A stretch of 63,198 nt of DNA, the filler included, from an uncultured Methanosarcinales archaeon (lineage in GTDB: Archaea > Nanobdellota > Nanobdellia > Woesearchaeales > JACPBV01): the NCBI GenBank assembly GCA_964492935.1. It is 3 parts of 3 records of this genome, joined end to end, with 100 filler letters (N's around TTAATTAATTAA, not from the genome) between each part and the next. Parts side by side here need not be neighbours in the genome. Positions count along the whole stretch, not along the records: positions 25,437 to 49,695 come from CAZBLF010000017.1; 2 more parts are not named here. The stretch is one strand, 5' to 3'. Positions 25,337-42,271 of this stretch are shown piece after piece; position 1 is the first letter of the stretch, and each line of letters begins with the position of its first letter. Below the pieces are notes generated by a model. It ran no database searches, was not told where the DNA came from, and saw only the letters and a list, made by a program, of their open reading frames with translations. The position numbers and the translations under genes were made by a program.

Positions 25337-25436
25337 NNNNNNNNNNNNNNNNNNNNNNNNNNNNNNNNNNNNNNNNNNNNTTAATTAATTAANNNNNNNN
25401 NNNNNNNNNNNNNNNNNNNNNNNNNNNNNNNNNNNN
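25337..25436. other. Artificial contig linker (N44-TTAATTAATTAA-N44)
   Basis: All-frame-stop spacer between N runs. Confidence 0.98.
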
Positions 25437-26692
25437 TTTTCTGTTTTAACAGGTTCGTCACTTTTCTCAGCAACCACTTCCGCCGGTTTCTCAGCAATCG
25501 TTTCTACAGCAGGAGTTTCAGCAGGCTTCTCAGCTACAGGAGTCTCACTTACCGTTTCCGCCGGTTTCTCAACAGCAGGCGCAGCAACAACCTCTTCCTC
25601 AACAGGAGCACCAATCGGCGCATTCACAATCTCCATTTCCGGCTCCTCAGCTTTCTCAACAACCACTTCAGCAACTTTCTCAACAACCACTTCAGCTTCA
25701 ATTCTAGCCAATTCCGCCTTCGGATCGGGCTTAGTATCAACATCATTCGCCACAAACTCTAAACGTTCAAACATCTCATTTTTCTTAACCTTTCCCGTCA
25801 ACTTAACAATGTGCCCCAGCAATTCAGTCTTCACCTGCTCAAACTGATCGGGAGCATCCTTATACTGCATCATCTCTTCTTTCGATTTCCCAATCAATTC
25901 CTGTGCCTGGTCTCTAAAAAAAACAGCTCTAATCGTTTCAGTACCATCATCTAACACCGCATTCATCACATACGAAAAGTCAGGAGTAATCTGATTGCCA
26001 GTTGCATCTCTAAAAATACCCTCTCCATCCGGTCTCGACCTTCTTCCAGTAGTAGGATCAACCTCGAAAAAGCGTGGCTCAAATACTTGCACGACCGTAC
26101 CCATTAATTCAACATGATCGTCCGTTTCCGTTAACGCAGCGATACTTTTACGACTAGCAGGCTTACTCTGCTGCGTCGCCTTAACTTCGCCCATCGTCAC
26201 ACCCTCAGGATTAACAACAACTCCACTCTTATCATTCAGATGAATCTCAATCTTACCGTTATTCTCCCGAACATAACCAGAACTCACCTTAAGAATATCC
26301 TGCTCCTTAAATGTTGTAGTCAAATCAGCATGATCGCCCCACAATACAACCCTAATCGAGCCCGTCTCATCTGCAAGTACTACATTAGCAACCTTTCCTG
26401 GAGCGCCATCCTTCCTCTGAAACGTAGAAATTTGCGAAATGTTCAACACCTTTCCATCAACCTCAACATCGCGCATCCCCTCAAGGATATTCTCAATCTG
26501 TAATTTTCCAGTAACCGCATCAAATAATTTAACACTCAATTCGTTAGCAATAATATGTGCCGCACCCTCCTTACTGATCAATCCAGAAAGCTCCTCCATC
26601 TTAGCATCAATCTTCGCGTTCAATTCAGCGTCGGCAATACCACTATGTTCCTTAATCTTAGCAATAATCTGCTCTATCGGCATCTTTATCAT
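25437..26692 (-). CDS. Replication protein A-like OB-fold ssDNA-binding protein, 3'-truncated
   Basis: SGLISKEGAAHIIANEL, ADETGSIRVVLW, LDDGTETIRAVFF; acidic E/P/A/K-rich tail with AEKPAE repeats. Confidence 0.88.
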
Positions 26693-26743: not shown

Positions 26744-28228
26744 TTAATTAATCGGTGGAGCAATATATGTAGTGTATGCACCCTCTCCAAAGTTACCAAA
26801 CTCATTAAGACTGCCCGCATCGTCCTCCGCAATAATGACGAAACACGTTTCTTTGAGCAAATCCAGTTTCCTCTCAGTTTCCCCTAATGTAATTCCACTC
26901 TCCTGGAAGGGGAAAAACAACGGATCAAAATACGGCTCATCCTTTTCGGAGTCATACTCAATTTCTCTGAACGGTAGCACCAACGTCTCCCCCTCAGAAC
27001 ACTTGCCTTCCCTCTTCTGTTTAGCATAGAGTATAATCTTCTTCACATCAGACGACGGATTCTTGTCCCAAATCAATCTACCTGTCTTTGTACCCTCAAC
27101 CTCTTCCTGCTCGAATCCAGTATAGGCGAGTGGCTTAAAACTATCCCAAAACTGCATCCCAATCTTGATCGAAACCGGCGTTCCATCCCACCGATGACTA
27201 AAAGAATCATCAGTTATCTCAAAAACCAGCACATAGTCTTGCTTATTATCCGTCGGTGTTACTGTAAACGCACTAAATTCCGAGACCATGCGAGCAAGCG
27301 TAGGTTCTCCCTCAACACCATCTTTTTCTCCCAGGATCGCACCAGTACACCATTCGATATCGCTACCTTCGTGCACAACATTATAATCTTTTGCCTGCAA
27401 CAAACACTGCTCAAACTCCCCTTTGTACAGCTCTACAGCACCCTTCACCCGATCCATCCCCTTCAAAAAGTCATAATCCGAACTAATTCTAAATGCCGGC
27501 TTAATCGCATACACAACAGGCTCTATCTCTCGACACATATCCTCCCAATAACATCCCAATGTGCAAGGATCAAAGTCACACTGTATCTCATTGAGGTAAT
27601 CATCACATTCATTAGATTTTTTTGTACATATCTGCTCCGCCGAATCCTTACTACGACGAGCGGCATTCTGTCGCTTCAATCCAATGCCGGCCTCATTAAT
27701 CAAAGAGGCAGCTCTAGCTGAGGGAAAAACCGCATCTTTCGTCCCAATGCCAACCACTTCAAGCCCACTCCCTTTTTCCTCGTACACCAAATCAAAGTTA
27801 TCGAGGGGAATATTTTTTCCGGGAAAACGAAGTAGGTAACTATCTAATCGAGTATTAAATAATCCTTCAAAAGACTCCTGTAAGGCACCCTCCGTAGGAG
27901 TGCATCGGTGACGTTTCCTATCTTCCATCGATTTACTTCGTTCACTCTCGTCAATAGACTCCCAAACACCGTTTTCACATATTCCTCCGGCCTTAGTAAA
28001 AAACTCAGTTATCGTATCCTGGAGCACATACTCTGCACTCTGATCGACATACAGTAATGCCTTATGGCCTGAAGCGATTGCTTTGAGCTGCTCACTCTGC
28101 AACTCTCCTGTCTGCCCAGTATAAGGAACGATCTTTTGAGACATCTGTAGCGAGAACATCATCAAGAGTATAGAAGTAAATACAATCAAACTCAAACCCA
28201 TGGCAATCAATCCTTTTTTGTCCTTCAT
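26744..28228 (-). CDS. Pilin-like (class III signal) protein with a Cys-rich insert and C-terminal FN3-like domain
   Basis: MKDKKG/LIAMGLSLIVF; CxxxxxxC..C..C...C cluster; LIWDKNPSSDVKKIILY...CFVIIAEDDAGS. Confidence 0.65.
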   Translation of the reverse strand: MKDKKGLIAMGLSLIVFTSILLMMFSLQMSQKIVPYTGQTGELQSEQLKAIASGHKALLYVDQSAEYVLQDTITEFFTKAGGICENGVWESIDESERSKSMEDRKRHRCTPTEGALQESFEGLFNTRLDSYLLRFPGKNIPLDNFDLVYEEKGSGLEVVGIGTKDAVFPSARAASLINEAGIGLKRQNAARRSKDSAEQICTKKSNECDDYLNEIQCDFDPCTLGCYWEDMCREIEPVVYAIKPAFRISSDYDFLKGMDRVKGAVELYKGEFEQCLLQAKDYNVVHEGSDIEWCTGAILGEKDGVEGEPTLARMVSEFSAFTVTPTDNKQDYVLVFEITDDSFSHRWDGTPVSIKIGMQFWDSFKPLAYTGFEQEEVEGTKTGRLIWDKNPSSDVKKIILYAKQKREGKCSEGETLVLPFREIEYDSEKDEPYFDPLFFPFQESGITLGETERKLDLLKETCFVIIAEDDAGSLNEFGNFGEGAYTTYIAPPIN

Positions 28229-28689
28229 CGATATAGCTCCAGCCGATACTCCAAAGGCACTCGATCTCGTTGAGGCAACACAAAATCAAAAGAGTAGTCT
28301 TTCTTAGAAGCATAACATCCCTTAGTGCATTTTTTAGTAAGGAGACTATCTCCCAAATAAAGTTTGAATTTCTTATAAGAGGTTGTTTCAACTAATACCT
28401 TAAGCAATGCCTCATTTATTTCTGTAGAACGATCAACTCCCGTCGTCCCATCAATAGGCTCATAACTCAATATTTCGCGCAAGGGTTTAGTACCTACTTC
28501 GTACTCCAACAATCCTAGCAATAAAACAGTATCAGTATGTTCATCAAATGAAACTTTAATTGCAACCTCCTCCTTTCCGGCGATCTGAGGCTTTATACAT
28601 TGGGTCATCAGGACAAAAATGAAGAGCACAAATATCCAAAACATCACAAAGACTGCACGATCCGCACCCGTCCCTCTTTTCGATTTCAT
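28225..28689 (-). CDS. Pilin-like (class III signal) protein
   Basis: MKSKRG/TGADRAVFVMFWIFVLFIFV; translationally coupled to its neighbours. Confidence 0.6.
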   Translation of the reverse strand: MKSKRGTGADRAVFVMFWIFVLFIFVLMTQCIKPQIAGKEEVAIKVSFDEHTDTVLLLGLLEYEVGTKPLREILSYEPIDGTTGVDRSTEINEALLKVLVETTSYKKFKLYLGDSLLTKKCTKGCYASKKDYSFDFVLPQRDRVPLEYRLELYR

Positions 28690-29168
28690 CGGTAAAACAT
28701 AACCCCCTCAGTCAAATGAAGAGTCTTACCTGCAACAACAACCGGATACCTCAACTGAGTCCCACCAAAAACATTCCCGTTCTGATACACCGCAGAAGCA
28801 GCCCGATAAAGCTCAAGATTAAATCCCACAGGGTTCTGGCCCTGAAGTGTTAAAGCACCTGCAAAATCAGGATCTCCCAAGAACAATTTCTCAACCTGAT
28901 CCTGTGTAATCTTTTCCGAGTCAACAATCCAAGGATAGGTCCTTCCTGTAAGATTATCCTCCAGAAAAATAGAATCTCCACTAAATGCCAATCTGCTAGA
29001 GTACAGATAATGCTCCATATTGTAGGTATCGGCAGATCCCTTAAAGACAGAGAAAAACAAAACCGCGAATAATCCTAAGATAACAACAATGCCGACCATG
29101 TACCCCATGATATAGAAAACTAAATCAGACAACCCTCTCTTATTATTAAACAGCCTAGACAATTGCAT
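28686..29168 (-). CDS. Pilin-like (class III signal) protein
   Basis: NNKRG/LSDLVFYIMGYMVGIVVILGLF. Confidence 0.65.
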   Translation of the reverse strand: MQLSRLFNNKRGLSDLVFYIMGYMVGIVVILGLFAVLFFSVFKGSADTYNMEHYLYSSRLAFSGDSIFLEDNLTGRTYPWIVDSEKITQDQVEKLFLGDPDFAGALTLQGQNPVGFNLELYRAASAVYQNGNVFGGTQLRYPVVVAGKTLHLTEGVMFYR

Positions 29169-30234
29169 CCTGGATAACCCCTGGCAATTGCGATTTAGTT
29201 TGTGTACTCGTAAGTTCAGCATAACTAGCCTCATCGCGCAGGCTGCCAATTTCAAGAATCAAGCCGGCAACGTCAGGTCTGAGAAGCGGAACGAATCCCT
29301 CTCCCTCGCCACCTATAAGTTGAGCCTCATCAAGGGGAATAAGAGCAACTCCCTCAAGGCTAAGACTAGGAACATCCAAGAGATTATTCAGAATCTCACA
29401 TCCAAGACCTTTAGAAACTTCCAGAATCTCCTTAGGAGAATTCTTAAGATAATATGCTTTGATCGTTTTCCCAGCGAACGCCGAGCCAACGTGAATACTT
29501 ACAATTAAATCAACCTCCTTTTTTTGGCTAGCAGCCTGGATATCATTCGTAGACTTCCTCCGACCATCCTGCATTCGAGTGTAAAAAACATCCTCGATCT
29601 GAGTAGAAAGCAGCAGTTCCAAACTACTACCAAAGACATGAGTGAGTTCAGATTCTCTACGCCCATTGTAAACATGCCCATCATCTGCACCATGAGCAGC
29701 ATCAACTATAATGTGCTTAAAACCATGTTTACCTACCTCACAATCAAGGCTATGCAAGGAATAAGCGCGAGATCCATCTCCTTGATCCATAAACAATCCA
29801 TCATTAATGCGCGCAAACACCGGTTTCACCTTAGTCTTCTCAACGAGATTAGTAGAAATCTTCTCGCCAGCAAACCGTGGCGCCAAACTACCTTCATTGA
29901 CCGTTGCATGTCGATCGGCAAGAAAAGGATAGCTTGCTAGTTCAGTAATCGGCCTTGTTTCATCGTGAATTCCAACTACATTATCCTTAATGCGCAAACC
30001 AAACCATTTCATATTTTTATCATACGTAACAATCATATTCCCGGGAGAGGCATACAACGTATTAATCACCATCGCAACATCCCGTGCAAGAAAATTAGCC
30101 TCAAATCCTACTTCCTCAGTAATATTGACAATCTCCTTCATAATCGGTAGAAAATAAAACGCCGCAATCAACAAAAGACCAAAAATAGCTATAGGAATAA
30201 CGGCAGGTATCTCGCTTTGGCCCCTCTTTCCCAT
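29155..30234 (-). CDS. Pilin-like protein fused to an N-acetylmuramoyl-L-alanine amidase (Amidase_3) domain
   Basis: MGKRG/QSEIPAVIPIAIFGLLLIAAF. Amidase motifs IIVDAAHG, GRRESEL, VFYTR, DLIVSIH, LLR...GLILEIG give the H-E-H-E set. Confidence 0.8.
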   Translation of the reverse strand: MGKRGQSEIPAVIPIAIFGLLLIAAFYFLPIMKEIVNITEEVGFEANFLARDVAMVINTLYASPGNMIVTYDKNMKWFGLRIKDNVVGIHDETRPITELASYPFLADRHATVNEGSLAPRFAGEKISTNLVEKTKVKPVFARINDGLFMDQGDGSRAYSLHSLDCEVGKHGFKHIIVDAAHGADDGHVYNGRRESELTHVFGSSLELLLSTQIEDVFYTRMQDGRRKSTNDIQAASQKKEVDLIVSIHVGSAFAGKTIKAYYLKNSPKEILEVSKGLGCEILNNLLDVPSLSLEGVALIPLDEAQLIGGEGEGFVPLLRPDVAGLILEIGSLRDEASYAELTSTQTKSQLPGVIQDAIV

Positions 30235-30272
30235 AGACCCTCCCTCGAAGAAATGAGTTTATATATCTTATG

Positions 30273-30806
30273 TTATTTTTTCAATGTACTTAACGTAATC
30301 AAGGTATGTTGCACCTTAGAATTATCTTTACTAGCATCAACTTTCTTTTCAATAGAAAACCCCAGATCTACAGTCGCAATCTTATCATCTCCCTCCTTGA
30401 AATCAAAATCAACAATCTCTCCCTCCTTGCTCAAAATCTGGTGACAATACGGAGCTATTTTTTCGGCTCCCGTCGACTGCAAACACATCTTCGGCTCAGA
30501 TGCACAGTCAACCCCGCGTACCTGACTAGCCTCCGTACAGCGAGAGTAAAGCCTAATAATATTATTTGTGGTGAGAGCTAAAGGAATACTCGACGCCTGA
30601 CCCTTATGAAACTGAGTAACATATTCTGCAATTGAATCAAACGTCTCATAATTCACATTTTGAATATGTGCTTTTTGAGACTGACTGCACCATTTAGCAA
30701 CTGCAGGAATAAACACTATCAGAAAGACTACCAATATCGTCATCTGCAAGACTTCAGTCCAGGGCTGGTCGACAACACTCCCTTTCTTATTTTTTCTTAG
30801 CCCCAT
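30273..30806 (-). CDS. Pilin-like (class III signal) protein
   Basis: KNKKG/SVVDQPWTEVLQMTILVVFLIVF; Cys pairs. Confidence 0.6.
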   Translation of the reverse strand: MGLRKNKKGSVVDQPWTEVLQMTILVVFLIVFIPAVAKWCSQSQKAHIQNVNYETFDSIAEYVTQFHKGQASSIPLALTTNNIIRLYSRCTEASQVRGVDCASEPKMCLQSTGAEKIAPYCHQILSKEGEIVDFDFKEGDDKIATVDLGFSIEKKVDASKDNSKVQHTLITLSTLKK

Positions 30807-30817
30807 CTTTGGCTGGC

Positions 30818-31135
30818 TCAGTTATTTACTATAGGAGAACTCTGATAGCAATCCTTATCTCCACAATCACTAAAGGTGCCTGTAACCTTTTCCCAAGTTC
30901 TCCCGTTAGCAGGAGTGGGAGGCGTATCAGCACATTTTCTATTAGTATCAAAAAGACTCTTACATGCAGTTCCATCAGCCTGATTTAAAGCAGAATCAGC
31001 AGTTGTTTTGTAACCTTTAGTATATGTAAGAATACTCTCCTTGAAAATAAAACCAACAATAATCAATACCAACACCCCTAACGAGGCGATGATAATCATC
31101 GTAAACGAAAGCCCCTGACCCTTTTTCCGAACCAT
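30818..31135 (-). CDS. Small type IV pilin-like protein
   Basis: MVRKKG/QGLSFTMIIIASLGVLVLIIVGFIF; 4 Cys; own TATA box (31158-31165). Confidence 0.8.
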   Translation of the reverse strand: MVRKKGQGLSFTMIIIASLGVLVLIIVGFIFKESILTYTKGYKTTADSALNQADGTACKSLFDTNRKCADTPPTPANGRTWEKVTGTFSDCGDKDCYQSSPIVNN

Positions 31136-31213
31136 ACACAAAAACTCCATTTTCAAATATTTAAACCTTTGCAAAGGGAAAGCTATTTATACAGAAAATC
31201 CAGTATAGCAGCA

Positions 31214-31828
31214 ATGAACAAAAAAGCGATTGTTTGGTTGGTAATAGCGCTTGTAGTGATGGTCGCAGCAAGTTTCTGGCTCTTCGGAGAGCCAGGTATC
31301 AATGAAGCCGACCCAGAAACGTGGATCATACGAACTTCTCAAACACAAGCGGGTGTCGATTTGCAGGGCGCAACGGCGGGCAAGAGCTTCCTCAACGAAC
31401 AAGGGCTGCAATACCTTTCCGCTACTACCGCAACCACATTTGCCTTAGAAGGATGGTATCAAGGTAAACATTTCAGGCAAGTGTATGCTGATCAAGACGG
31501 GAGAGTTCAAATGAGAATCACCCCGAAGATGCAACCTTACGATGGTATCCCAGAAGGATTCATTTTGCAAAAGTTAGATCCTCCTGAGGCCTACATTTTC
31601 CTTGACCTAGACTGGAAGGAGAAGTATCCACAATCCGTGATCTACTGGGGACGCTTCTTCGAAAATGAACAGGCAGTTGATTTTTCCTCAGAAGTAAAAG
31701 GGATATATATAGACCGAATAGAAGATGACATTTCAAGATTCCAGGAGAACTTCAATATCCATGACGGTGGAGTGATGGTGGGAATTCTAAACGAGGATGA
31801 AACTTCTACGCTTATCCGATTGTCCTAA
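31214..31828 (+). CDS. Membrane-anchored hypothetical protein, on the opposite strand within the pilin array
   Basis: MNKKAIVWLVIALVVMVAASFWLF, then a beta-rich domain. Confidence 0.7.
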   Translation: MNKKAIVWLVIALVVMVAASFWLFGEPGINEADPETWIIRTSQTQAGVDLQGATAGKSFLNEQGLQYLSATTATTFALEGWYQGKHFRQVYADQDGRVQMRITPKMQPYDGIPEGFILQKLDPPEAYIFLDLDWKEKYPQSVIYWGRFFENEQAVDFSSEVKGIYIDRIEDDISRFQENFNIHDGGVMVGILNEDETSTLIRLS

Positions 31829-34800
31829 GTTTTTCCAATACTAAGTGTGCCCCACCCGCTCTTCTGCCATTCCTGAATCTCTTTTGAATCACGAGACGTA
31901 TCTCCGGTACCTCCAAAGCAAGCAGACACGGAAGGGATATGTCGAGGCCAAGCACCACATTTTTGTAATGCATATGAACCCGCTACAGCACCTAGTTCGA
32001 CACCTGAGACTGCAAGGGTCACAACGGCACCTGCCGATGTACCTCCCGAAATAGGAATCAGCGCTACAGCTGCGATTATCGCTGCCACATTAGCTGCAGT
32101 CGTAGCATATTCAAGATTAAGATTTCTTCCAGTATAGCAAAAATTGTTACCCCCATTCCAGTTAGAGTAGGAATCGAGGCGCGGAGTTGCAGAAACGCAA
32201 GGAATAGTAACTCTTCTTGATCCAGAGAACCGATTCGTCTTCGTAGGGACGAAAGTCTGCACGACGTCGGTTTCCCTACATACCTTGACTGCATTGACTT
32301 GTTCTGCGGTGGGCTGAGCTACAATATAGTTCCGAGGTAAAATATCCTTAATGAGATCATCAAGATAATCACTCTTGAGAAATCGTTTCATTTGCATCTT
32401 ATAAATGAGCTTACTGGTAGATTTGAACCAAACTAAGTTTCCATAATTGTTAGCTGGAGAATTGAGGAACAAGGGAAGATTTCTTTCTCGTCGATCCTGC
32501 AATCTTGACCATTCCAACTGAATCTTTGAAAAAACAAATGTCTCATCTGGAGAACTATAGAGGTATGTTAAACTAGTAGGGTCTTCAATGGGCCCTCTAT
32601 GACTAAAAATATTATTGAGCCGTTCATGACGCTCAGTATTTCTCATAAGGTCCCAATTAATTTCTAATACATCGCTTGGCTTCTCCCTAGGGTTTTTCCA
32701 AAATCTCTTAGAAAAGGGTAACCTCCAGACAGATTTAAAAGTTTGGGGGAGATCAAACGAGTCAATGTTGGGATTTTCATAAAAGAGCCCTCGTACGAGA
32801 TGTGCTAGTTCCTCCTTATCCCAATCATCAAGAGAAAGTTCACCTGAAACGATGGAGACAGAAGTAAGGTCGGAGACGAAATTGCTAGAAAAAACCTCGA
32901 GAAATCGCCGAAACCGTACCTCGTCCAGATCAAGAAGAGGAGTTAATTCAAGAAGGAATTCAATCTTATCATTTTTTCCATAAGGAGTTCCTACATGGTT
33001 TACAGATCCCGAGAACAATACATGCCCCATCATCATCACAAAAGTCTCCGCATCAGGAAAGAGAAACTTAAAAAGCTCGGTTCTCTCTAACACCAAGGGA
33101 TCTTTTTCTAAAAATCTGTTTTTTGGTAGGAGTTGATTGATGCGGGACTCGAGTCCATATCTCTGACTCACAGTCTTTTTGAAGGACCAGTCTTTGACTG
33201 TAAGGTATTCCTTCTTCTCTTCAGCGCTAAACGTATCCCACACGGTTTCGACAGTCTTTTCCACCCCAATTGCCTCAATAGGTTGTATTCGATTACCTTT
33301 TCCATCTTCACCTGAAAAATAGTAACCAAAATCTCCATCATTCATCTGACAGGAGCAGTAGTTCTTTGCGATTAGTAAATCTGCCTTACAAGGACTAGCC
33401 ATAAAAAATCGCTCAGGAGGTTGGCTAGGATCCTTATTCATTGTAAGGTACAGATTCTCAATTCCTACCGGATCGTACGGTTTTGGGGGGATCTTATAGG
33501 GTTTGGGCTTAGCAACACCAATGGTGTTTGGTCCCATTGGCACGAATGCTTGATTCCTACTTTCCTCAAGATTGTAGAGCATTCCAAAACCAATAGCCAC
33601 AGGTAAATAATTATACCGTAGGAATTTCATACATCCAGTAGCAGAACGAAAGGGACCATTGAAAACCCAGCTCAAGGGAGTTCCTTTTATGAGGAGTGTA
33701 GCCGCACCCACACCAGCACCCACAGCAACAGTACCATCACTAATAAATTGAGAGGCAACGCCTGCAGCAATGATAAATCCACCTACAGTAATGCAGTTGC
33801 CAATGCTTTTAGCACTATTTTTCGCCCAGAGCGTCCCAGCCAAACGAAACTCATCAGCACTTTTTGTATTGGATTTAACTGCAGTAACGAACTTGCTGTT
33901 CCAGATCCCTTTTGCAGACTCGTCAAGGTTACCTATGATGGCCTTTGCAGCTACCTCATCTGCCTGTGAAAGCCCAGTTAAATCTTTAGTCCACATTTGT
34001 TTAAGTACTTCATCTGAAGACCTAAGTCTTTTTGAAAGTGTGATCCCTCCAATATCATCAAAAGTCGCAAATTGCTTCTGGAGTGTCTCGATAGTATCAT
34101 CCCAATGGCCCGACTTGAAAAGCACCTCAGAAAAAGCTTCAGCATTGTTTCGCTTAATAATCAGTTCAAGTGCTTCAGCCGCCCTTTTATTAGAGACTCC
34201 TTCAGTAACCTCCTTCATTGTTTGCTTCAAGGCGTGCTTGGAGATGTAAGTCTTTCGTGTAGCATCAGTTAATTTTCCGATAACTCTTTTAACAGTACCG
34301 TCAATGATGTCATTCCCAAATCCAGCCCTTTGTAATTCACCACGTAAAATAGTTTCCATAGCATCCAGCCCTTTTTTCTTCGTCCCATGTTTAGTTGAGA
34401 TAGCTACATTAAGGAGATCATCCTTCACCCAGGTCTTTGAACTTTTTCCTTGTCGTTTGTAAGCATCAAAGACAAAATCAACAGCATCGTCAATCTTCTT
34501 CAGCTGCTCCTTTGCGAGATAAGGAGATGCATCACTGACACTTTCAGCCACCTGCGAAATAGTCTTACCTACCACCCCTCCACTTTTACCGAGATTTTTA
34601 GTTTTTGCAAGCAATTCTCCAGCTTCGTCGAAATTATCAACTGAGTTCGCAGCCTTTGCCAGAGCTCCTGCAGCAGCTTCGCCCGCTGCTTTAGTCCCTC
34701 GCAGAGCCTTCACAGCTGGACCAATAGCAGGCACAAACGCGAAAACTCCCTGGACAACAAGTCCAACATTAATCCAAAAGAAATCATGGGTCTGCCAGGA

Positions 34801-35976
34801 AGCTTTTTCTTTTTCCGGAAATTTCTCATAGTATACGAGATACTCAGGATCTCCAAGATTAGGGATATAATTGCTGAGCTTAGATGTATCTTGGGGAAGC
34901 TCAAATCCAGAGAGAGTGCAGACCGCTCCGCGCTGTTCAACATTTTGAGGGAGATTCTTATCAGTGAAGACAAATCGGTTTCCCTTCTGCAAGATGAGAT
35001 AGATTTCCCTTCCATATGATCGCGAATCGAGTTGATTTTTATCAGAAACGTAATGCATATCAAAGGAGATATGATCTTTCTTTAATCCCAACTGGCGATC
35101 CGAATCGGTAAAGAGGAGCTGAGAAGTAAAAAATCTGCTACTTGGAAGTTCCAATACTGCAACCGAGTTCTCTTTGAAGATCCGTTGTTTCCTTGAATCG
35201 ACCAGCGGTTCCAGAATCTCAATGCGTTGAACTGCATCTTTGCGCTCTCGCTCAATCTCAACCAATCGTGCTTTTCTTTCAGAAGCAATTTCCGGAAATT
35301 GGAATTCGGTGGCGAGTTCTTCTGAGATTTTCTCTTCCTCTTTAAGAAGCGCATCCAAACTGGCTGTCAAAGCCGACAATTCAGCAATCTCATCACCGAG
35401 TTCTTCAGAAACTCTTGCCGTATCTAATTCTATTCTTTTTGACAAGAGCTCACGCTTCCAAGGAGCAAAGGTAAGTCGAGCACAAAGCACCGGATTAGAA
35501 ATACGGTTATGTTTTCGCAGGCATGATCTCATTGCGTCTGTAATACTAGCGGCATTGTCTACAATCTTTGTTCCAAGCGGAAGTGTAGGGGTAACCTCGC
35601 AGTTCACGCATTTATCAGTTCCAAATAGTACTCCTTCACAACTCGCCTTCTCAGAGTCGGATGATTCGTCTTTGTCAGGAGTCTTTGATCCAAGACACCA
35701 AGAAGGATCTACAGATCCCTTAGCAACAGAAGAAAAAGCACACATCAAAGCATTCATAGAATCATCAATAATATGCTCCTCTGCAGTAAACACCGCTTTA
35801 TACGGGGTAAATTTAGTCTTCCCGGTAAAGTCCGCGCGAGTATTATTGAGGAGCTTTTTCGAGGAAGAAAAAGCATCAGGATACACTGCAAAAATAATCA
35901 ATCCAAGAACAATCGCACCAATAACTATCTCGACTACGTTAGACCATACCAAAAAACCCCTTTTATTGCGCATCAT
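31825..35976 (-). CDS. Giant pilin-like (class III signal) protein with a coiled coil and several internal Gly/Ala-rich hydrophobic segments
   Basis: MMRNKRG/FLVWSNVVEIVIGAIVLGLIIF; heptad region; hydrophobic segments near 34790-34700, 33790-33570 and 32110-31970; scattered Cys pairs. Confidence 0.75.
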   Translation of the reverse strand: MMRNKRGFLVWSNVVEIVIGAIVLGLIIFAVYPDAFSSSKKLLNNTRADFTGKTKFTPYKAVFTAEEHIIDDSMNALMCAFSSVAKGSVDPSWCLGSKTPDKDESSDSEKASCEGVLFGTDKCVNCEVTPTLPLGTKIVDNAASITDAMRSCLRKHNRISNPVLCARLTFAPWKRELLSKRIELDTARVSEELGDEIAELSALTASLDALLKEEEKISEELATEFQFPEIASERKARLVEIERERKDAVQRIEILEPLVDSRKQRIFKENSVAVLELPSSRFFTSQLLFTDSDRQLGLKKDHISFDMHYVSDKNQLDSRSYGREIYLILQKGNRFVFTDKNLPQNVEQRGAVCTLSGFELPQDTSKLSNYIPNLGDPEYLVYYEKFPEKEKASWQTHDFFWINVGLVVQGVFAFVPAIGPAVKALRGTKAAGEAAAGALAKAANSVDNFDEAGELLAKTKNLGKSGGVVGKTISQVAESVSDASPYLAKEQLKKIDDAVDFVFDAYKRQGKSSKTWVKDDLLNVAISTKHGTKKKGLDAMETILRGELQRAGFGNDIIDGTVKRVIGKLTDATRKTYISKHALKQTMKEVTEGVSNKRAAEALELIIKRNNAEAFSEVLFKSGHWDDTIETLQKQFATFDDIGGITLSKRLRSSDEVLKQMWTKDLTGLSQADEVAAKAIIGNLDESAKGIWNSKFVTAVKSNTKSADEFRLAGTLWAKNSAKSIGNCITVGGFIIAAGVASQFISDGTVAVGAGVGAATLLIKGTPLSWVFNGPFRSATGCMKFLRYNYLPVAIGFGMLYNLEESRNQAFVPMGPNTIGVAKPKPYKIPPKPYDPVGIENLYLTMNKDPSQPPERFFMASPCKADLLIAKNYCSCQMNDGDFGYYFSGEDGKGNRIQPIEAIGVEKTVETVWDTFSAEEKKEYLTVKDWSFKKTVSQRYGLESRINQLLPKNRFLEKDPLVLERTELFKFLFPDAETFVMMMGHVLFSGSVNHVGTPYGKNDKIEFLLELTPLLDLDEVRFRRFLEVFSSNFVSDLTSVSIVSGELSLDDWDKEELAHLVRGLFYENPNIDSFDLPQTFKSVWRLPFSKRFWKNPREKPSDVLEINWDLMRNTERHERLNNIFSHRGPIEDPTSLTYLYSSPDETFVFSKIQLEWSRLQDRRERNLPLFLNSPANNYGNLVWFKSTSKLIYKMQMKRFLKSDYLDDLIKDILPRNYIVAQPTAEQVNAVKVCRETDVVQTFVPTKTNRFSGSRRVTIPCVSATPRLDSYSNWNGGNNFCYTGRNLNLEYATTAANVAAIIAAVALIPISGGTSAGAVVTLAVSGVELGAVAGSYALQKCGAWPRHIPSVSACFGGTGDTSRDSKEIQEWQKSGWGTLSIGKT

Positions 35977-35978
35977 GT

Positions 35979-36122
35979 TCAAAAAAAACTACCGATATCT
36001 TTAAGCAGACTAGTCCCTTCATTCTGTGCCTGAAAAACATAAAACAACAAAAAGACCAAAGCGATGCCCGCTAAGATAAACAAGACCAGTTGATTAAATG
36101 CTAAACCTTTCTTCAATCTCAT
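35979..36122 (-). CDS. 47-aa micro-pilin, not in the ORF track
   Basis: Hand translation MRLKKG/LAFNQLVLFILAGIALVFLLFYVFQAQNEGTSLLKDIGSFF. ATGA overlap with the upstream gene; its stop is 2 nt before the giant gene's ATG. Confidence 0.75.
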   Translation of the reverse strand: MRLKKGLAFNQLVLFILAGIALVFLLFYVFQAQNEGTSLLKDIGSFF

Positions 36123-37168
36123 TTCACTTTCGCCTCCACTTCTTTAAGCTTACAGCTAACCTGGTACTGATCAAGCGGCATCAGCTGAACGACATCAAAA
36201 ATCTCCTCGGGAGGACTGCCTGAAAACCGTCGTGCAATTTCAGCCGATAGCTGACTAAGTTGTTGCTTATTAAACCGCTTATACACCACAGCAAGATCGT
36301 TGTTTTTAAGCTTATCAGTCGAAGATTTTTTCTCAATATCATAGGGATAGCTTGTAAAAAAGTCACTCACTAGAGAATCATCTTTAATATACTCCCAAAA
36401 ACTCTCTGTGCTAACTCTACTGGTAGGATTATTCTTCAGGAAGGCATCCATAGTAGACCCACCAGCAAATAGAGTAGCGACATCATCTCTGAATTGAATA
36501 ACCTCACACAAATCACAATAGATAACGGTGGAGGCACCAGTAATTTCATCAAAAATACCTGCATCGTGCCATTGTTTTCCAATAGGCAGATCTCCCTGCC
36601 CATTTCGTCCCCAACACCGCTTCATCGCCTTTGCTATAGCTTCCTCAAAACGATATTCAACCAAAAAAGGAACCCTGCCATTTTTCCCAAGTAAAGGATC
36701 CTTATTAGTGAGATATTCGGCAATGCCTCCCGGACCGTCAAATTTATCTTTCTTCATGCGATCATTCTGATCCTCTAAACTATCCCTCGGCTCATTATAC
36801 CACTTAGCAATATTTTTAATGTCAGCTTTCGCAAACGGATCGTTAAGATCAACAACACTAGGATCATCAGAATCACCCACCAAAGAGAGTGTATGGAAAA
36901 TGGGAGTACAACTAGCACCCCACACAGTGATACCTGCTATCGGAATCTTAGTATAGGCACTAACCACTTTCTTAGCCAAACAAAAGAAATAATCCTCCCC
37001 TATACCTCTCATCAACGCAAATGCTGACGAATAAAATCGCAAAGCAATAATCATAATCACGGCCATCATAATAACCGTAACAATAATACCTTCAGACATT
37101 CCTTTCTTATTCTCAGGAAAAAGGTACTGCTTAAATCTCAATAACCAAGAATCTTTTTCCTTACTCAT
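36119..37168 (-). CDS. Pilin-like (class III signal) protein
   Basis: ENKKG/MSEGIIVTVIMMAVIMIIAL; IAKAMKRCW..G.G and YCDLC motifs. Confidence 0.7.
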   Translation of the reverse strand: MSKEKDSWLLRFKQYLFPENKKGMSEGIIVTVIMMAVIMIIALRFYSSAFALMRGIGEDYFFCLAKKVVSAYTKIPIAGITVWGASCTPIFHTLSLVGDSDDPSVVDLNDPFAKADIKNIAKWYNEPRDSLEDQNDRMKKDKFDGPGGIAEYLTNKDPLLGKNGRVPFLVEYRFEEAIAKAMKRCWGRNGQGDLPIGKQWHDAGIFDEITGASTVIYCDLCEVIQFRDDVATLFAGGSTMDAFLKNNPTSRVSTESFWEYIKDDSLVSDFFTSYPYDIEKKSSTDKLKNNDLAVVYKRFNKQQLSQLSAEIARRFSGSPPEEIFDVVQLMPLDQYQVSCKLKEVEAKVK

Positions 37169-37302
37169 TTGAATGGGTTCAATTCAGCCATCTGACCTCT
37201 TAACAAAAATATTGCAACCGCAAAGATAAATGCGAGGGATACCAAGATCAATATCCACCCCATAGGCAAGCCTGTCTCTGTTGCCTGCCCTCTCTTATCC
37301 AT
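37165..37302 (-). CDS. 45-aa micro-pilin
   Basis: MDKRG/QATETGLPMGWILILVSLAFIFAVAIFLL; TTTATAAA 23 nt upstream; the track start at 37428 is too long. Confidence 0.75.
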   Translation of the reverse strand: MDKRGQATETGLPMGWILILVSLAFIFAVAIFLLRGQMAELNPFK

Positions 37303-37396
37303 ACCACTACCTGTAGAAACCAAGTTTATAAACATTTGTTTTCCACCGAGAGATGAACGAGGAAAGAAAATACACTCTCGCAACACCAGAAATGTC

Positions 37397-37534
37397 TTAT
37401 GACAACCCAACCGCATCCAAAATAACAAACGTATCGTTAAAAAGAACCAGTTTCTGTATCATCATCCAAAGAATAGCTAACAACACTAACAAAATAATAA
37501 TCTTAAATGCAGAAACATCATTAATCTTTAACAT
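37397..37534 (-). CDS. Putative 45-aa hydrophobic microprotein, not in the ORF track
   Basis: Hand translation MLKINDVSAFKIIILLVLLAILWMMIQKLVLFNDTFVILDAVGLS; pilin-like hydrophobic core but no K-G cleavage motif. Confidence 0.35.
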   Translation of the reverse strand: MLKINDVSAFKIIILLVLLAILWMMIQKLVLFNDTFVILDAVGLS

Positions 37535-37549
37535 AAAAAGGAAAAAAAA

Positions 37550-37822
37550 TTAGAACTGCGTACAGCAGATCTTACCATCAGCCAAGTTAAAGCTTCCAGC
37601 GATTTTTGAGCCTGTTGGACATCCACCCTCGGCGTCAGCATCCTGTACAACTCCACCGATAGCTGCACTATCGCAAGTTAATCCTTCCTGCTGCTCATCC
37701 AATCCCTTATTGAAAGCTCCCATTCTACCCGTAAAGATTGCCCAAAGAACAACCAATACAATAAGAACAATAGCTGCAATAATAACCGTGTTAAGACTTA
37801 GTCCCTGTGCTTTCTTTTTCAT
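37550..37822 (-). CDS. Small type IV pilin-like protein (candidate major pilin)
   Basis: MKKKA/QGLSLNTVIIAAIVLIVLVVLWAIFTG; C..GG..C..CC tail; RBS GAGGTG and TATA box. Confidence 0.85.
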   Translation of the reverse strand: MKKKAQGLSLNTVIIAAIVLIVLVVLWAIFTGRMGAFNKGLDEQQEGLTCDSAAIGGVVQDADAEGGCPTGSKIAGSFNLADGKICCTQF

Positions 37823-37951
37823 ATATGACACCTCTGAATATATTCCAAGATATTGATAGATACAAATCAGCTCAAGTAGTATATAAACCTTTTGGAAATC
37901 GGAGATTTCCAATGGTACCAGAAATGGAATTTCTATGTACCTTTCGATAAC

Positions 37952-38212
37952 TTAGAATAAACGCTTCCGTCGCCTAAAGATGGGAATGAACGGTATAAAT
38001 CCACCTAAAATATCTGTTGGAAGCCCAGTAAGTGCTCCCGTATCATCCACATCGATGCCATCCACATTATCTTGGGCCTTCGTAGCCTTTTCACTGAATG
38101 TACCAGCCCGACCCGTAAAAATAACCCAAATCACAACCAATACTAACAACACAATAATCGCCAGAATAATAACATTCAACGGCAAGCCCTGACCTTTTTT
38201 AGTAAATTTCAT
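37952..38212 (-). CDS. Small type IV pilin-like protein
   Basis: KKG/QGLPLNVIILAIIVLLVLVVIWVIFTG; hydrophobic plus RRRKR C-terminus. Confidence 0.85.
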   Translation of the reverse strand: MKFTKKGQGLPLNVIILAIIVLLVLVVIWVIFTGRAGTFSEKATKAQDNVDGIDVDDTGALTGLPTDILGGFIPFIPIFRRRKRLF

Positions 38213-38234
38213 TTCCAAACTTCTTCAATCAATA

Positions 38235-38513
38235 CTATATGGCTACTTTTGGAACACATTTTGCGGCTTTAATCTCACAGTTGGCGGCCTTAAAGCAGGC
38301 ACCATCTTGCGTTACATCAGTAATAGCACTACAAACTCCCAAAATATTAGCAATCTTATCAGTTTCTAATTCGTTCTCCTGCTCCACAACCTTAGTACTA
38401 AATGTACCAATCCTACCCGTAAAAATAACCCAAATCACAATCAACACCAACAGAACAATGACTGCTATGATGATAACGTTCAACGGTAACCCCTGTCCCT
38501 TTTTCTTCATCAT
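38235..38513 (-). CDS. Small type IV pilin-like protein
   Basis: KKKG/QGLPLNVIIIAVIVLLVLIVIWVIFTG; 4 Cys; TATA box 38532-38540. Confidence 0.85.
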   Translation of the reverse strand: MMKKKGQGLPLNVIIIAVIVLLVLIVIWVIFTGRIGTFSTKVVEQENELETDKIANILGVCSAITDVTQDGACFKAANCEIKAAKCVPKVAI

Positions 38514-38560
38514 CTTATTTCCATGAATTTGTTATATAAATGTTTTGGATATTTCTGAAA

Positions 38561-38935
38561 TTAAGTATTAGGAATCCACTCACAAGGAGAGCTACAACTT
38601 CCCCTAGTCCGCTCAGAAGAACAGGACGGAAAATTACAGGTAGTATCAAAAGTTCCAGAATTATCTATACATCCAGAAGGACATCTCCTAGAACCCAAGT
38701 TACCAATAGGATCACAACCTCCAACCTTCTGCCTACAAGTACCATCACTACTACCACCGAAAATGTCCTCAATCTCTCCCTTAAGACCTTCTCTCTCACC
38801 TTCCTGCTTTTCCAAATCTTTAGCAAAATTCGTCGAAGAGCCCTTAAAAATCACAAACACCACAACAAGAACAACTAATACAATAATGCCGATGATAATA
38901 ACCTGCCACGGCAATCCCTGACCTTTTTTATCCAT
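38561..38935 (-). CDS. Small type IV pilin-like protein, Cys-rich
   Basis: MDKKG/QGLPWQVIIIGIIVLVVLVVVFVIF; 8 Cys; TATA box 38958-38967. Confidence 0.85.
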   Translation of the reverse strand: MDKKGQGLPWQVIIIGIIVLVVLVVVFVIFKGSSTNFAKDLEKQEGEREGLKGEIEDIFGGSSDGTCRQKVGGCDPIGNLGSRRCPSGCIDNSGTFDTTCNFPSCSSERTRGSCSSPCEWIPNT

Positions 38936-38974
38936 ACAATCACACCGATATTTCTAGTATTTAAATATTTCCGT

Positions 38975-39457
38975 TCAATCACAAATATCCATCTTCAAAA
39001 TCAGAGTATTCAACCCCGTCGTATCCAAAGGAATCGGATACGGTTTACTCTTAAACCCAGCCGGACAACCTGGGCCAGCTTTCAACACCGAAAATCCGGC
39101 CTGCGTTGCAGCTGTAAATCTAAACTTAACCCTCCACTGATCAAACGTCGCATTAAAAATCAACGGAACCTCCCGCTCCAAAAAGTCACAGGTCGTTTCG
39201 CCAGAGCAAATCAAAGCATTCCCCTGATTCTTAGCACAGTGCTGGAACACCTCCTCAAACGTCATCTTGTTACAATTCACCACCGTAGTCCGCAAGATCG
39301 AACTCAACATATTAGAAGCCATCTCCGTCTGCGTAAACGACTGCTTATAGGATGCCGGCTCCTTCAACACCACAAAACGGATTGCAAACAGCATCGCCAC
39401 CGAGATCAATATCACAATAACCGCAAGCCCCATAATCTCCATCTGACCGCGCCTCAT
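38975..39457 (-). CDS. Minor pilin-like (class III signal) protein
   Basis: MRRG/QMEIMGLAVIVILISVAMLF. Confidence 0.8.
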   Translation of the reverse strand: MRRGQMEIMGLAVIVILISVAMLFAIRFVVLKEPASYKQSFTQTEMASNMLSSILRTTVVNCNKMTFEEVFQHCAKNQGNALICSGETTCDFLEREVPLIFNATFDQWRVKFRFTAATQAGFSVLKAGPGCPAGFKSKPYPIPLDTTGLNTLILKMDICD

Positions 39458-39954
39458 GAGTACACCTCAACCACCAACACGCCCATATTAAAATTCCCGG
39501 TGGTAGCATCGTACAAGGAAGTAGGAATAAACGTAGACAATTTATCGGTGAACGTTGCAGGAACATTTTCATAAATCAACAAATCTCCGCCCGAAGGAAA
39601 CAATTGCTGAACCGTTACCCGACTAAACCCAAATAAATCAAAATAATGCAATTGATTATCAGGAACAATTTCATCGATATGCGACAACTTAAACAAATCA
39701 ATACAATTTTCCTTCCGCACATTATCTCTAGAACATTGCAATTCCGGTAAAAAAGAAACTCTCTGCGCAACCCCAATCGCCTGCAGCTGGATATTCTCCT
39801 GAAACTCCGCCTGAGAGCTGCTCCCCAAGATCTTCATGTAAAACACAAAACCAAACACAATCAGAATAAAGAAGACAAAGAGGATAGCAACACTTTCCCC
39901 CATCTGTATTTGTCCCTTCCTTTTCGCAGATATGCGGAATGCTGGCTTCATCAT
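39454..39954 (-). CDS. Minor pilin-like (class III signal) protein
   Basis: KRKG/QIQMGESVAILFVFFILIVFGF; PELQCS..NCID. Confidence 0.8.
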   Translation of the reverse strand: MMKPAFRISAKRKGQIQMGESVAILFVFFILIVFGFVFYMKILGSSSQAEFQENIQLQAIGVAQRVSFLPELQCSRDNVRKENCIDLFKLSHIDEIVPDNQLHYFDLFGFSRVTVQQLFPSGGDLLIYENVPATFTDKLSTFIPTSLYDATTGNFNMGVLVVEVYS

Positions 39955-41009
39955 CAGTAAATCAACTCGCAACTCAATAACTGTAACTGCCGGTTCTGAT
40001 CATTCTTCAAACTTACCATATTGTCCTGAATATTCGAAAGAGGAGTTATCCCTGTTCGATGCGGATACGAAACACTCAAGTCAGTAGCAATAGACTCAAG
40101 CACACTCAAAAACCGATCGTGATGAAACGTAAAGCATCCTCCAGAACCATAAAACTTCTGCAACTCCAAACTGCGATTAACGTAAATGCTACTCACCAAC
40201 GCCAACCGCGAAAACGCATTACGCATCGCACAATTATAGTTTTCAGCCGTCCCAGAGTAGATCGCACCAAACAACGCATCATCGTTCATGTAAAATGTTT
40301 TTGCAGGAGGATCTTCAAAGGCAGAACCCTCTTTCCTATAAAACTCCACATTCCCAAACCGTGGAATACTATCCTTGCCCTGCAAGTCAGGAAAGGCAAC
40401 CGCACTAATTTTTTCATCATCCACATTCAACAATGAATTTTGAAAAACATCACCATTTACCGCTCCCAAAAAAATAAACCGAATGTGCGGATCATTCCGA
40501 TCTTCTAATCCAGCAAAATCAACCACATCAATAACCTCTTTATTCATCTCCCTTGGAAGAGTATCAAAAATCTTTTTCCCCAAATCCTTACTATTATTCA
40601 CAATAATATACCGAATCACCGGATCCGTCAGATACAGAAAGTTCATCACTCTGTACGGAACACTCCAATCGCGCGCCCACGTGATCATCTTTCGACCCTC
40701 TATCCGAGTAGGAGCAAAAACAACATTATCTCCCGTCTGCTTTCGAACACTCCCAATCGCGTAACTCCCACATTCAAAATCTACCGTGGTCTGCGGCAGA
40801 TCAAATACGTTAACCGTATTAGTAGAAATTTCAGCACCAGTGAAGATAGATGCTAAGCTAGTAGCAACCGAAGCACTTGTACGAAGTGCAGAAACATCCC
40901 TCTGTTTGTTCACCACCGTGATAAAAAAAGTGAGAATAAGCCCGCCAGCTATCAAAACAAAGATCCAATTAAACTGTATCTCTATCTGCCCTCTTTTTTT
41001 TCGTAACAT
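39954..41009 (-). CDS. Minor pilin-like (class III signal) protein
   Basis: RKKRG/QIEIQFNWIFVLIAGGLILTFF; ends NRQLQLLSCELIY. Confidence 0.8.
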   Translation of the reverse strand: MLRKKRGQIEIQFNWIFVLIAGGLILTFFITVVNKQRDVSALRTSASVATSLASIFTGAEISTNTVNVFDLPQTTVDFECGSYAIGSVRKQTGDNVVFAPTRIEGRKMITWARDWSVPYRVMNFLYLTDPVIRYIIVNNSKDLGKKIFDTLPREMNKEVIDVVDFAGLEDRNDPHIRFIFLGAVNGDVFQNSLLNVDDEKISAVAFPDLQGKDSIPRFGNVEFYRKEGSAFEDPPAKTFYMNDDALFGAIYSGTAENYNCAMRNAFSRLALVSSIYVNRSLELQKFYGSGGCFTFHHDRFLSVLESIATDLSVSYPHRTGITPLSNIQDNMVSLKNDQNRQLQLLSCELIY

Positions 41010-41908: not shown

Positions 41909-41911
41909 AAA

Positions 41912-42271
41912 ATGAAAAAGAAACTATTGATCATAACAATAATGCTGCTCATTCCCGCAGCATTAGCAGAGGATCGTGGCTACTGGGACAGCTTCACCAC
42001 ACTCGATGAACTTACGGCTGCATCAGTTACCTTCGAAGAATCAGATCATGAAGAGTACATAGAAAAATTAACCGAGCTCATCTTCGAGGAAGTCCTGGAT
42101 GGAGATCCTAACCAGGTATTCGAGTACCAGATCTGGGAAGGCCCTGGCGGAATCACACTAAGGGTACGAAAGGAAGGCGCCACCGCAGAGTCCCTTCTTG
42201 TAAGAAAGATTCAAGATTGGTTATCAAGCTCTGTTACTCTTACAGACCTTTTCGACTTAATCAAAAGTTAA
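41912..42271 (+). CDS. Secreted acidic hypothetical protein
   Basis: MKKKLLIITIMLLIPAALA signal peptide. Confidence 0.65.
   Translation: MKKKLLIITIMLLIPAALAEDRGYWDSFTTLDELTAASVTFEESDHEEYIEKLTELIFEEVLDGDPNQVFEYQIWEGPGGITLRVRKEGATAESLLVRKIQDWLSSSVTLTDLFDLIKS

Follow-up and report, generated by a model that had tools for sequence, protein, structure and literature searches.

Several described surface systems offer points of comparison for the gene cluster analyzed here, an array of 17 type IV pilin-like genes in an uncultured DPANN archaeon of the order Woesearchaeales (GenBank assembly GCA_964492935.1, deposited under the name of an uncultured Methanosarcinales archaeon). The array lies on the minus strand of the window, that is, the whole analyzed stretch of 63,198 nucleotides (nt; filler included), which is a scaffold of three contigs, and is wholly contained in one of these, CAZBLF010000017.1 (C17). 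The source genome comprises 1.15 Mb in 57 contigs and is 84.8% complete. The 17 genes are denoted g01 to g17 in the order of transcription, g11 being the giant gene of the cluster, and gP is an additional gene on the plus strand (Table 1).

The Epd-type 'system 1' pili of Methanococcus comprise several pilin paralogues with class III-type leaders, including very small pilins without a globular head, and Epd pilins carry Gln at position +1. The array resembles them in all these respects, with Q as the +1 residue in 10 of its 17 proteins. In the Epd-type locus, an ATPase and two platform genes are located beside the pilins (PMC13705601); in contrast, none of these is encoded on the contigs of the window or was detected by BLAST in 13 related loci, the module has no pilin matches in Pfam or NCBIfam, and it adds a 1383-amino-acid (aa) Cys-rich protein, gP and enzyme-bearing members. 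According to the accessible text of PMC13705601, which covers system-1-specific pilins in 1990 DPANN genomes, the ATPase and platform genes of this group are adjacent and the pilins are located elsewhere; ordered type IV filament loci are rare in DPANN, pilins are scattered, and filaments functionalized by substrate-binding proteins have been proposed. The present cluster, with an order conserved over 38 loci, departs from this scattered arrangement.

Bacterial modular pilins (over 1,200 proteins in 264 architectures, one of them with a peptidase; Raynaud et al. 2021, PMC8179133), such as PilB and PilC of Streptococcus sanguinis, combine a small pilin carrier with a C-terminal functional module that is thought to reside at the filament tip, and g14 and g17 are so built. 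Unlike the bacterial proteins, g14 and g17 are archaeal, their carrier is unrelated in sequence to the IPR012902 motif, and their modules are murein hydrolases exchanged between lineages; neither 'archaea' nor 'hydrolase' occurs in the accessible text of PMC8179133. The minor-pilin sets with a large adhesin, namely, fimU-pilVWXY1E of type IVa pili and GspH-K of type II secretion, co-encode low-abundance pilins and a large, tip-presented protein that is not part of the shaft (PMC8179133). The g01-g03 trio together with the giant protein resembles this logic, a likeness that comes without a sequence or fold link, and differs from it in the pilin-like N-terminus of the giant (seen in 27 of 38 rows of its family, some cut rows counted in). 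To our knowledge, PilY1 has no such N-terminus. The Sulfolobales bindosome (BasEF) is similar to the module in that functional non-pilin proteins have pilin-type N-termini and undergo processing by the class III peptidase, with the base machine encoded elsewhere (PMC13705601). The bindosome cargo consists of sugar/substrate-binding proteins encoded beside ABC transporters, in contrast to the hydrolases in a dedicated 18-gene module here, and Pfam detects no substrate-binding-protein or ABC domain in the 18 module proteins.

Murein hydrolases, including large lytic-transglycosylase proteins, have been described in Woesearchaeota, Pacearchaeota and Nanoarchaeota and read as tools against bacteria or for binding them (PMC12352652, PMC9723730, PMC8204110). 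Unlike the proteins considered here, they are treated, in the accessible parts of these publications, as single secreted proteins, without pilin-type N-termini or a pilin-like operon; the word 'pilin' has no occurrence in the main texts of PMC12352652 and PMC8204110 and appears twice in one supplement of the latter, for a non-DPANN genome. Our literature search, which did not extend to the supplementary DPANN pilin lists of PMC13705601 (S4 and S5 tables, S10 figure), found no paper describing this cluster.

The best explanation of the sequence data appears to be that the 17 genes and gP form one vertically inherited module of Woesearchaeales-type DPANN archaea. For its function, we favor, at about even chances of being right, a type IV-filament-like appendage that displays murein hydrolases on modular pilins and is aimed at bacteria. 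The original prediction described 17 tightly packed, co-oriented open reading frames (ORFs) of 45 to about 1383 aa, each with a short basic leader and a hydrophobic helix, and all 17 were found on the minus strand, 45 to 1383 aa in size, in the order given there (three GQ-type proteins, four QGL-type small pilins, a micro-pilin, a 349-aa protein, another micro-pilin, the giant, a fifth QGL-type protein and five more). With the Met ahead of the basic leader taken as the start of each ORF, all 17 pass a test for the class III-like motif, defined as [KR][KR][G/A] within 30 residues from the start and, after it, 17-28 uncharged residues in a row. Genes in the array are joined by 7 overlaps of 1-14 nt and 6 gaps of 2-47 nt, with three larger gaps of 129, 247 and 689 nt. 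Genome-wide, the strict motif test is passed by 50 of 1368 greedy non-overlapping ORFs, 16 of which fall into the 14.3 kb of the cluster, that is, 1.2% of the genome; the other 34 are spread over the remaining 1.14 Mb, at ~0.4 per 14.3 kb, so that the array is real and far above chance.

The claim of co-orientation holds for the 17 minus-strand ORFs but not for the module as a whole because the 689-nt gap is filled by the conserved gP, on the plus strand. This arrangement implies at least three transcription units. The gP gene ends 4 nt inside the stop of the giant gene, and its start is separated from that of g12 by 78 nt, in which AT-rich TATA-like boxes were read by eye.

The case for a single inherited module comes from comparison of genomes. 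BLAST of all window proteins against seven related loci recovered the same genes in the same order, and a five-row gP alignment retrieved 10 named loci, six from Candidatus Woesearchaeota, two from Nanoarchaeota and two from 'uncultured Methanosarcinales' in third-party bins. Strong matches to the gP profile (E<=2.3e-16) were obtained in 31 of the 401 genomes sampled from the phylum, each of them within the order of the window (29 of 399 without two flagged unpublished genomes); 16 more genomes had only weak matches, which fall almost exclusively in the N-terminal portion of the profile, and were left uncounted. Using iterated profiles with gP as the probe, we assembled a conservation set of 38 loci (given L-numbers below) from 38 genomes, many of which stop at contig or frame edges. 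In this set, the gP family is represented in 38 loci, the giant in 37 (the remaining locus is truncated at gP), g09 in 33, g14 in 32, g15 in 31 and g17 in 30, followed by g03 (15), g02 (10) and g01 (9). The common order is [g01 g02 g03], 2-5 small pilins, (micro-pilin) g09, micro-pilin, giant, gP, small pilin, ~155-aa protein, g14, g15, ~150-aa protein, g17. The g14-g17 block is inverted or moved, yet adjoins the rest, in five loci (L035, L044, L045, L053 and L055), and the blocks g01-g03, small pilins, g09-giant-gP and g14-g17 remain adjacent after rearrangement. Homologues are, accordingly, tightly clustered rather than scattered, and the class III motif is kept in most of the orthologues (g14, 31/32; g17, 29/31; g15, 28/30; g09, 29/33).

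On the g17 side, the cluster is followed by a gene for an oligonucleotide/oligosaccharide-binding (OB) fold protein related to replication protein A (RPA; tRNA_anti-codon and Rep_fac-A_C domains). The RPA gene also follows g17 in at least ten other loci (L036, L037, L038, L040, L041, L042, L045, L047, L051 and L052), so that the module keeps a fixed chromosomal address beside a replication gene. The presence of this neighbor in many genomes speaks against an integrated virus or mobile element encoding pilin-like and lytic proteins, an origin that lytic enzymes next to a giant protein could suggest by recalling phage tail or lysis modules and that we consider extremely unlikely. Furthermore, no integrase or repeats were noticed when the flank ORF lists were read by eye. 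We reject a viral or mobile-element origin given that the G+C content of the cluster is like that of its surroundings and that 0 of the 18 proteins match PHROGs. The stretch is near-identical in 20 runs of 17 studies, all of marine, seawater, aquatic or hydrothermal-vent metagenomes, and contigs of four DNA runs match the cluster almost identically; none of the 23 runs listed for the stretch is an RNA run.

The second line of evidence is the enzymatic cargo. The amidase fusion claimed in the original prediction was confirmed by Pfam: residues 175-358 of g14 match Amidase_3 (PF01520; E 7.8e-13, 49.3 bits against a cut-off of 27). This is the only Amidase_3 match in the genome, where no SLT domain is detected, and Amidase_3 is found in 0 of 4 archaeal control genomes. 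A profile of 4 Amidase_3 orthologues matches CwlV (1jwq) at E 2e-10, and also Cwp6, with the DAGHG, SIH and LE.G stretches aligned. The residues H181, H248 and E328 of g14, which we take to be the metal ligands and the catalytic residue, are invariant in the 4 orthologues and align with the CwlV motifs; judging from the conservation of these putative metal-binding and catalytic positions, the g14 amidase appears to be active. In alignments, g14 and g17 each consist of a conserved N-terminal module and a variable remainder. The g14 carrier module is present in 32 loci, and some of the orthologues are the carrier alone (147-169 aa), whereas g14 itself has the modular-pilin architecture of a class III-like N-terminus, a conserved module of ~170 aa and a separate Amidase_3 domain. 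An FN3-like protein had been claimed as well. Pfam detects no FN3 domain in any window protein, and residues about 250-494 of g17 yield weak fn3/Ig leads only (template modeling score 0.35-0.41), which leaves this claim unconfirmed.

Cargo was called at thresholds of 1e-3 or 1e-4 in g14, g17 or the next gene of the 32 loci that have the g14-g17 block, and 14 of these contain a standard murein hydrolase domain. The g14 slot carries Amidase_3 in 4 loci (the window, L017, L021 and L041). The g17 slot carries Amidase_2 in 3 (L019, L020 and L042, one of which also has SLT in the next gene), 3D in 2 (L027 and L037), NlpC/P60 with SLT in 2 (L035 and L044), M23 with NlpC/P60 in 1 (L030), and M23 in 1 (L052), where the next gene encodes GH25. 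NlpC/P60, Amidase_6 and Beta-lactamase2 are jointly found in the next gene of 1 locus (L050). Three more loci carry DUF2272, Peptidase_C39_2 or NAGPA+GDSL, and the remaining 15 have no recognizable cargo domain. On the gP tree, sister lineages differ in cargo (L044 and L053 at 100/97, L019 and L027 at 93/75), and Amidase_2 and Amidase_3 each appear at separate places. The pattern proposed beforehand, conserved core slots with varying cargo, is what the comparison reveals: g14 and g17 carry different murein hydrolases depending on the genome, even between sister lineages.

In the hydrolase-displaying appendage that we favor, the single A24 prepilin peptidase of the genome would remove the short basic leaders, and the FlaI/TadA-type ATPase, together with an adjoining polytopic membrane protein, would pull the proteins out of the membrane to build a short filament or pseudopilus at the surface. 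The shaft would consist of the small QGL proteins, five in number, together with the two proteins of 45-47 aa, and the g01-g03 trio might be the initiating or tip complex. Under this scenario, g14 and g17 would function as modular pilins in which the conserved N-terminal carrier presents an exchangeable C-terminal module, the one displayed in this genome presumably being the Amidase_3 murein amidase of g14. The appendage would serve to attach to, feed on or kill a bacterial cell by holding it and opening its sacculus locally. There is no sign of murein synthesis in the archaeon and, therefore, the target should be a bacterial wall. A more specific version is possible, and we offer it tentatively: a DPANN-specific, type IV filament-derived organelle for cross-domain contact, in which a shaft with interchangeable murein hydrolase tips is built around the giant disulfide-rich protein and its membrane partner gP, the two of which would dock onto the envelope of a bacterial host and open it.

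The same enzymes could, in principle, cut a murein-like wall of the archaeon itself for passage of an appendage, by analogy with the lytic enzymes of secretion and flagellar systems in bacteria. One Mur-ligase-type ORF (Mur_ligase_M), which would fit such own-wall remodeling, is present in the genome, but a single match of this type is likewise found in some murein-free archaeal controls, and a housekeeping role is hard to reconcile with such free variation of the cargo families. No transpeptidase was found in the genome, at 84.8% completeness; given this result and the lone Mur-ligase-type ORF, self-directed murein hydrolysis is very unlikely and was set aside.

The diversity of the cargo also fits an arms race and, hence, a weapon in which a secretion pseudopilus, a piston like that of type II secretion, frees the hydrolases to kill competing bacteria without cell contact. 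Archaeal peptidoglycan hydrolases that kill bacteria have been documented, and a recognized Sec/Tat signal is reported in only 32% (67/210) of the archaeal homologues (PMC12352652), which leaves room for another export route. Nevertheless, we consider this explanation unlikely because the hydrolases of the module carry a pilin-type N-terminus and a conserved carrier, unlike the substrates of type II secretion, and no release mechanism is evident.

The giant, gP and g09 occupy the center of the module. The giant has no match in Pfam, NCBIfam or PHROGs; a word-index protein search returned 2 proteins only, one of which is its own cluster, and no score in a protein atlas exceeded 0.83. Relatives are present in 8 of 41 related genomes, that of the window included. 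The recurrent features of the family are the N-terminal helix, a hydrophobic segment near the C-terminus and conserved Cys-rich islands. The internal hydrophobic stretches are not kept across the family, and the suggestion that the giant is membrane-active is, accordingly, unsupported. An AlphaFold2 model of residues 294-1385 (32 sequences) is unusable, with a mean predicted local distance difference test score (pLDDT) of 49.1. Contigs of run X1 contain a 27-nt in-frame insertion at window position 32767, inside the giant gene.

The gP gene is the constant neighbor of the giant gene across loci. Its product is modeled with a pLDDT of 94.1 as a membrane helix and an all-beta domain, for which Foldseek finds no match at E<=0.001 among PDB structures; in a wider fold search (VIA), the top rows matched the N-terminal helix alone, and the best row for the beta-domain had a Z of 5.0. 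Such weak fold matches of a model do not show that the fold is new. Among 1.84 billion representatives, the gP family accounts for 237 clusters (E<=1e-10). Only 12 of 37 gP orthologues have even a loose class III motif, an internal contrast to the pilin-like members, and the best explanation is that gP is a membrane-anchored partner without a pilin-type leader. In this explanation, the giant and gP are core parts of the system, perhaps as adhesin and anchor, respectively.

The g09 protein contains four invariant and two nearly invariant cysteines, and its profile yields chance-level rows only (E>=0.15) against PDB sequences. The possibility that g09 and the giant are duplicates of one cassette in this genome was dropped because their hhalign match is limited to the N-terminal 31 columns (probability 82%). 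Of the 401 genomes sampled across the phylum, 251 contain members of the g09 family (248 of 398 if the flagged unpublished ones are excluded), often in 2-4 copies side by side, and the family extends to other orders of the class that have no strong gP match. From these distributions, the gP/giant module looks like the elaboration, by one lineage, of a much wider DPANN surface gene set.

The processing and assembly machinery is encoded outside the module. As stated in the original prediction, the window encodes no ATPase, peptidase or platform, and the search of the genome that was suggested there located both a prepilin peptidase and a FlaI/TadA-type ATPase. The single A24 peptidase (PF01478 at C1:39927-40277, 50.4 bits against a cut-off of 26.5) is encoded by a 310-aa ORF among housekeeping genes on contig C1 and has a weak Arc_PepC_II tail (E 1.1e-3). 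The single T2SSE-family ATPase (PF00437, 51.1 bits), an 805-aa ORF on contig C12, matches NCBIfam FlaI at E 5.1e-38, below the equivalog cut-off, and the end of its gene is overlapped by one that encodes a polytopic membrane protein of 738 aa. The T2SSF platform (PF00482) has no match in the genome, incomplete as it is. Both the A24 peptidase and the ATPase families are present in 4 of 4 near-complete module-bearing genomes. The region C12:62-10281 (locus L003) encodes, on the side of the ATPase opposite to the 738-aa gene, five secreted or anchored proteins, among them two paralogues (234 and 262 aa) that have a hydrophobic helix at the N-terminus but no K/R-G motif, and one 637-aa cadherin/Ig-like protein.

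Several observations weigh against a dedicated bacteria-directed filament. The 738-aa protein is a platform candidate by position only, with no T2SSF/FlaJ recognition even at E<=1. The ATPase and peptidase are unlinked to the module, being located on other contigs here and at distances of 35 to about 300 kb in relatives with near-complete genomes, and are also present in the complete relative G029, which has no strong gP match; nothing binds this machinery specifically to the module, and the proteins beside the C12 ATPase may be its own filament or surface set or its clients. The motif was scored with a regular expression of our own, in place of FlaFind/SignalP6, and the 17 proteins are called pilin-like by their N-termini. 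Pfam pilin family models match 0 of the 17 at E<=0.01, and at E<=0.1 the sole pilin-named row in NCBIfam is a weak match of g07 (E 0.0047, 16.6 bits against a cut-off of 40). A murein hydrolase is found in only 14 of the 32 loci and, therefore, wall cutting may be accessory rather than core. The g09 family is present in 251 genomes vs 31 with a strong gP match, so that the ancestral role may be that of a general envelope structure. All cultivated DPANN have archaeal, not bacterial, hosts (PMC11291902). Finally, leader cleavage, polymerization, the place of each part, the roles of the giant and gP, and the target are steps that we infer.

Much of this would fit a bindosome-like or envelope complex that forms no filament and in which the class III-type N-termini are merely processed anchors, with a surface layer near the membrane holding the enzymes and Cys-rich proteins, for scavenging of wall debris or as a DPANN envelope structure. 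We regard such a complex, the strongest of the alternatives, as doubtful, notwithstanding the wide spread of g09-type proteins, the absence of assembly genes from the module in all 13 loci searched by BLAST, and the apparent membrane anchoring of gP and the giant. The Sulfolobus bindosome is an established case of class III signals on surface proteins other than pilins, and such signals have been proposed for many archaeal substrate-binding proteins (PMC13705601). However, five tandem small pilin-like paralogues and two helix-only proteins of 45-47 aa resemble a polymer shaft and would be superfluous for anchoring enzymes. Moreover, the bindosome itself needs the base machine of a type IV filament (PMC13705601), so that the envelope complex overlaps the hydrolase-displaying appendage.

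The Woesearchaeota are abundant, and the conserved module, with its enzymes specific for bacterial murein, provides a concrete genetic handle on their partners and mode of association: it names candidate contact proteins and predicts bacterial partners. Given that the cargo type changes between sister lineages, it is usable as a host-range marker. The module widens the ideas of the 'modular pilin' and the 'functionalized type IV filament' beyond binding modules to lytic enzymes, and beyond bacteria and Sulfolobales to DPANN. It may also explain why many archaeal peptidoglycan hydrolases have no recognized Sec/Tat signal (PMC12352652). Should an organelle for cross-domain contact indeed be involved, this would make many Woesearchaeota of marine and groundwater habitats episymbionts or predators of bacteria, with the module as the apparatus that determines their host range.

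Table 1. Coordinates of the array, its genes and the adjoining RPA-like gene (positions in the window)
Feature	Length (aa)	Position	Strand	Description
Pilin-like array		26744..41009	-	17 ORFs on contig CAZBLF010000017.1 (C17), GCA_964492935.1
g01	351	39954..41009	-	first of trio; leader MLRKKRG, mature N-terminus QIEIQFNW
g02	166	39454..39954	-	trio member; leader end KRKG, then QIQMGE
g03	160	38975..39457	-	trio member; MRRG, then QMEIMG
g04	124	38561..38935	-	small QGL-type pilin-like protein
g05	92	38235..38513	-	small QGL-type pilin-like protein
g06	88	37952..38218	-	small QGL-type pilin-like protein; TTG start
g07	90	37550..37822	-	small QGL-type pilin-like protein; MKKKA, then QGL
g08	45	37165..37302	-	micro-pilin; only leader and helix
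g09	349	36119..37168	-	Cys-rich pilin-like protein
g10	47	35979..36122	-	micro-pilin immediately ahead of the giant gene
g11 (giant)	1383 (1385 from upstream TTG)	31825..35976	-	pilin-like N-terminus, Cys-rich islands, hydrophobic segment near C-terminus
gP	204 from ATG at 31214 (219 from TTG 31169)	31214..31828	+	ORF 31169-31828, probable start 31214; N-terminal membrane anchor and all-beta domain
g12	105	30818..31135	-	fifth QGL-type small pilin-like protein; opens second transcription unit, divergent from gP
g13	177	30273..30806	-	pilin-like protein
g14	359	29155..30234	-	carrier module (about residues 1-170) and Amidase_3 (175-358)
g15	160	28686..29168	-	pilin-like protein
g16	154	28225..28689	-	pilin-like protein
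g17	494	26744..28228	-	conserved N-terminal module (about residues 1-200, Cys pair); C-terminal part without family assignment
RPA-like gene		25385-26692		OB-fold protein, after g17

Apart from g14, the array proteins and gP have no match in Pfam or PHROGs and chance-level rows only in NCBIfam; g01 has no match in any of the three. Orthologues of g01 are, each time, beside g02 and g03; the class III-like motif is present in 9 of 10 g02 orthologues and in 10 of 15 of those of g03, some of the remaining g03 rows starting at the end of the locus and looking cut. Among the small QGL-type proteins, the N-terminal 30-60 residues of g04 are similar to those of small proteins at the equivalent place in related loci, and g07 is 59% identical to L017:13252-13533. 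In all four DNA runs, the contigs are interrupted within the tandem small pilins (about 37.7-38.9 kb), where near-repeats or strain variation would be expected to cause breaks. Other slots are recognizable by position: class III-motif ORFs of about 40-58 aa are found ahead of g09 in many loci (the g08 slot) and of 44-61 aa between g09 and the giant in most (the g10 slot). Sequence relatives of g13 and g16 are found in only 3 and in 7 loci, respectively, the slots being held in most loci by class III-motif ORFs of ~150-190 aa (g13) and ~130-200 aa (g16).

Further ORFs with good class III-like N-termini beyond the cluster are located at C8:23743-23913, C43:1883-3898, C33:8715-9914, C3:60025-61071 and C2:20528-20860, among them a QGL-type paralogue of 56 aa and larger proteins (671, 399 and 348 aa). 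Divergent from g01, on the plus strand (window 41114-42271), are genes for two small secreted-looking proteins, one of 264 aa, which is Cys-rich and has no Pfam or NCBIfam match, and one of 119 aa. A 134-bp element with terminal inverted repeats at window 53091-53224 folds at -30 kcal/mol (z -5.2) and contains no tRNA; copies with 99-100% identity are present on at least 8 more contigs of the genome, so that it looks like a repeat of the miniature inverted-repeat transposable element (MITE) type.

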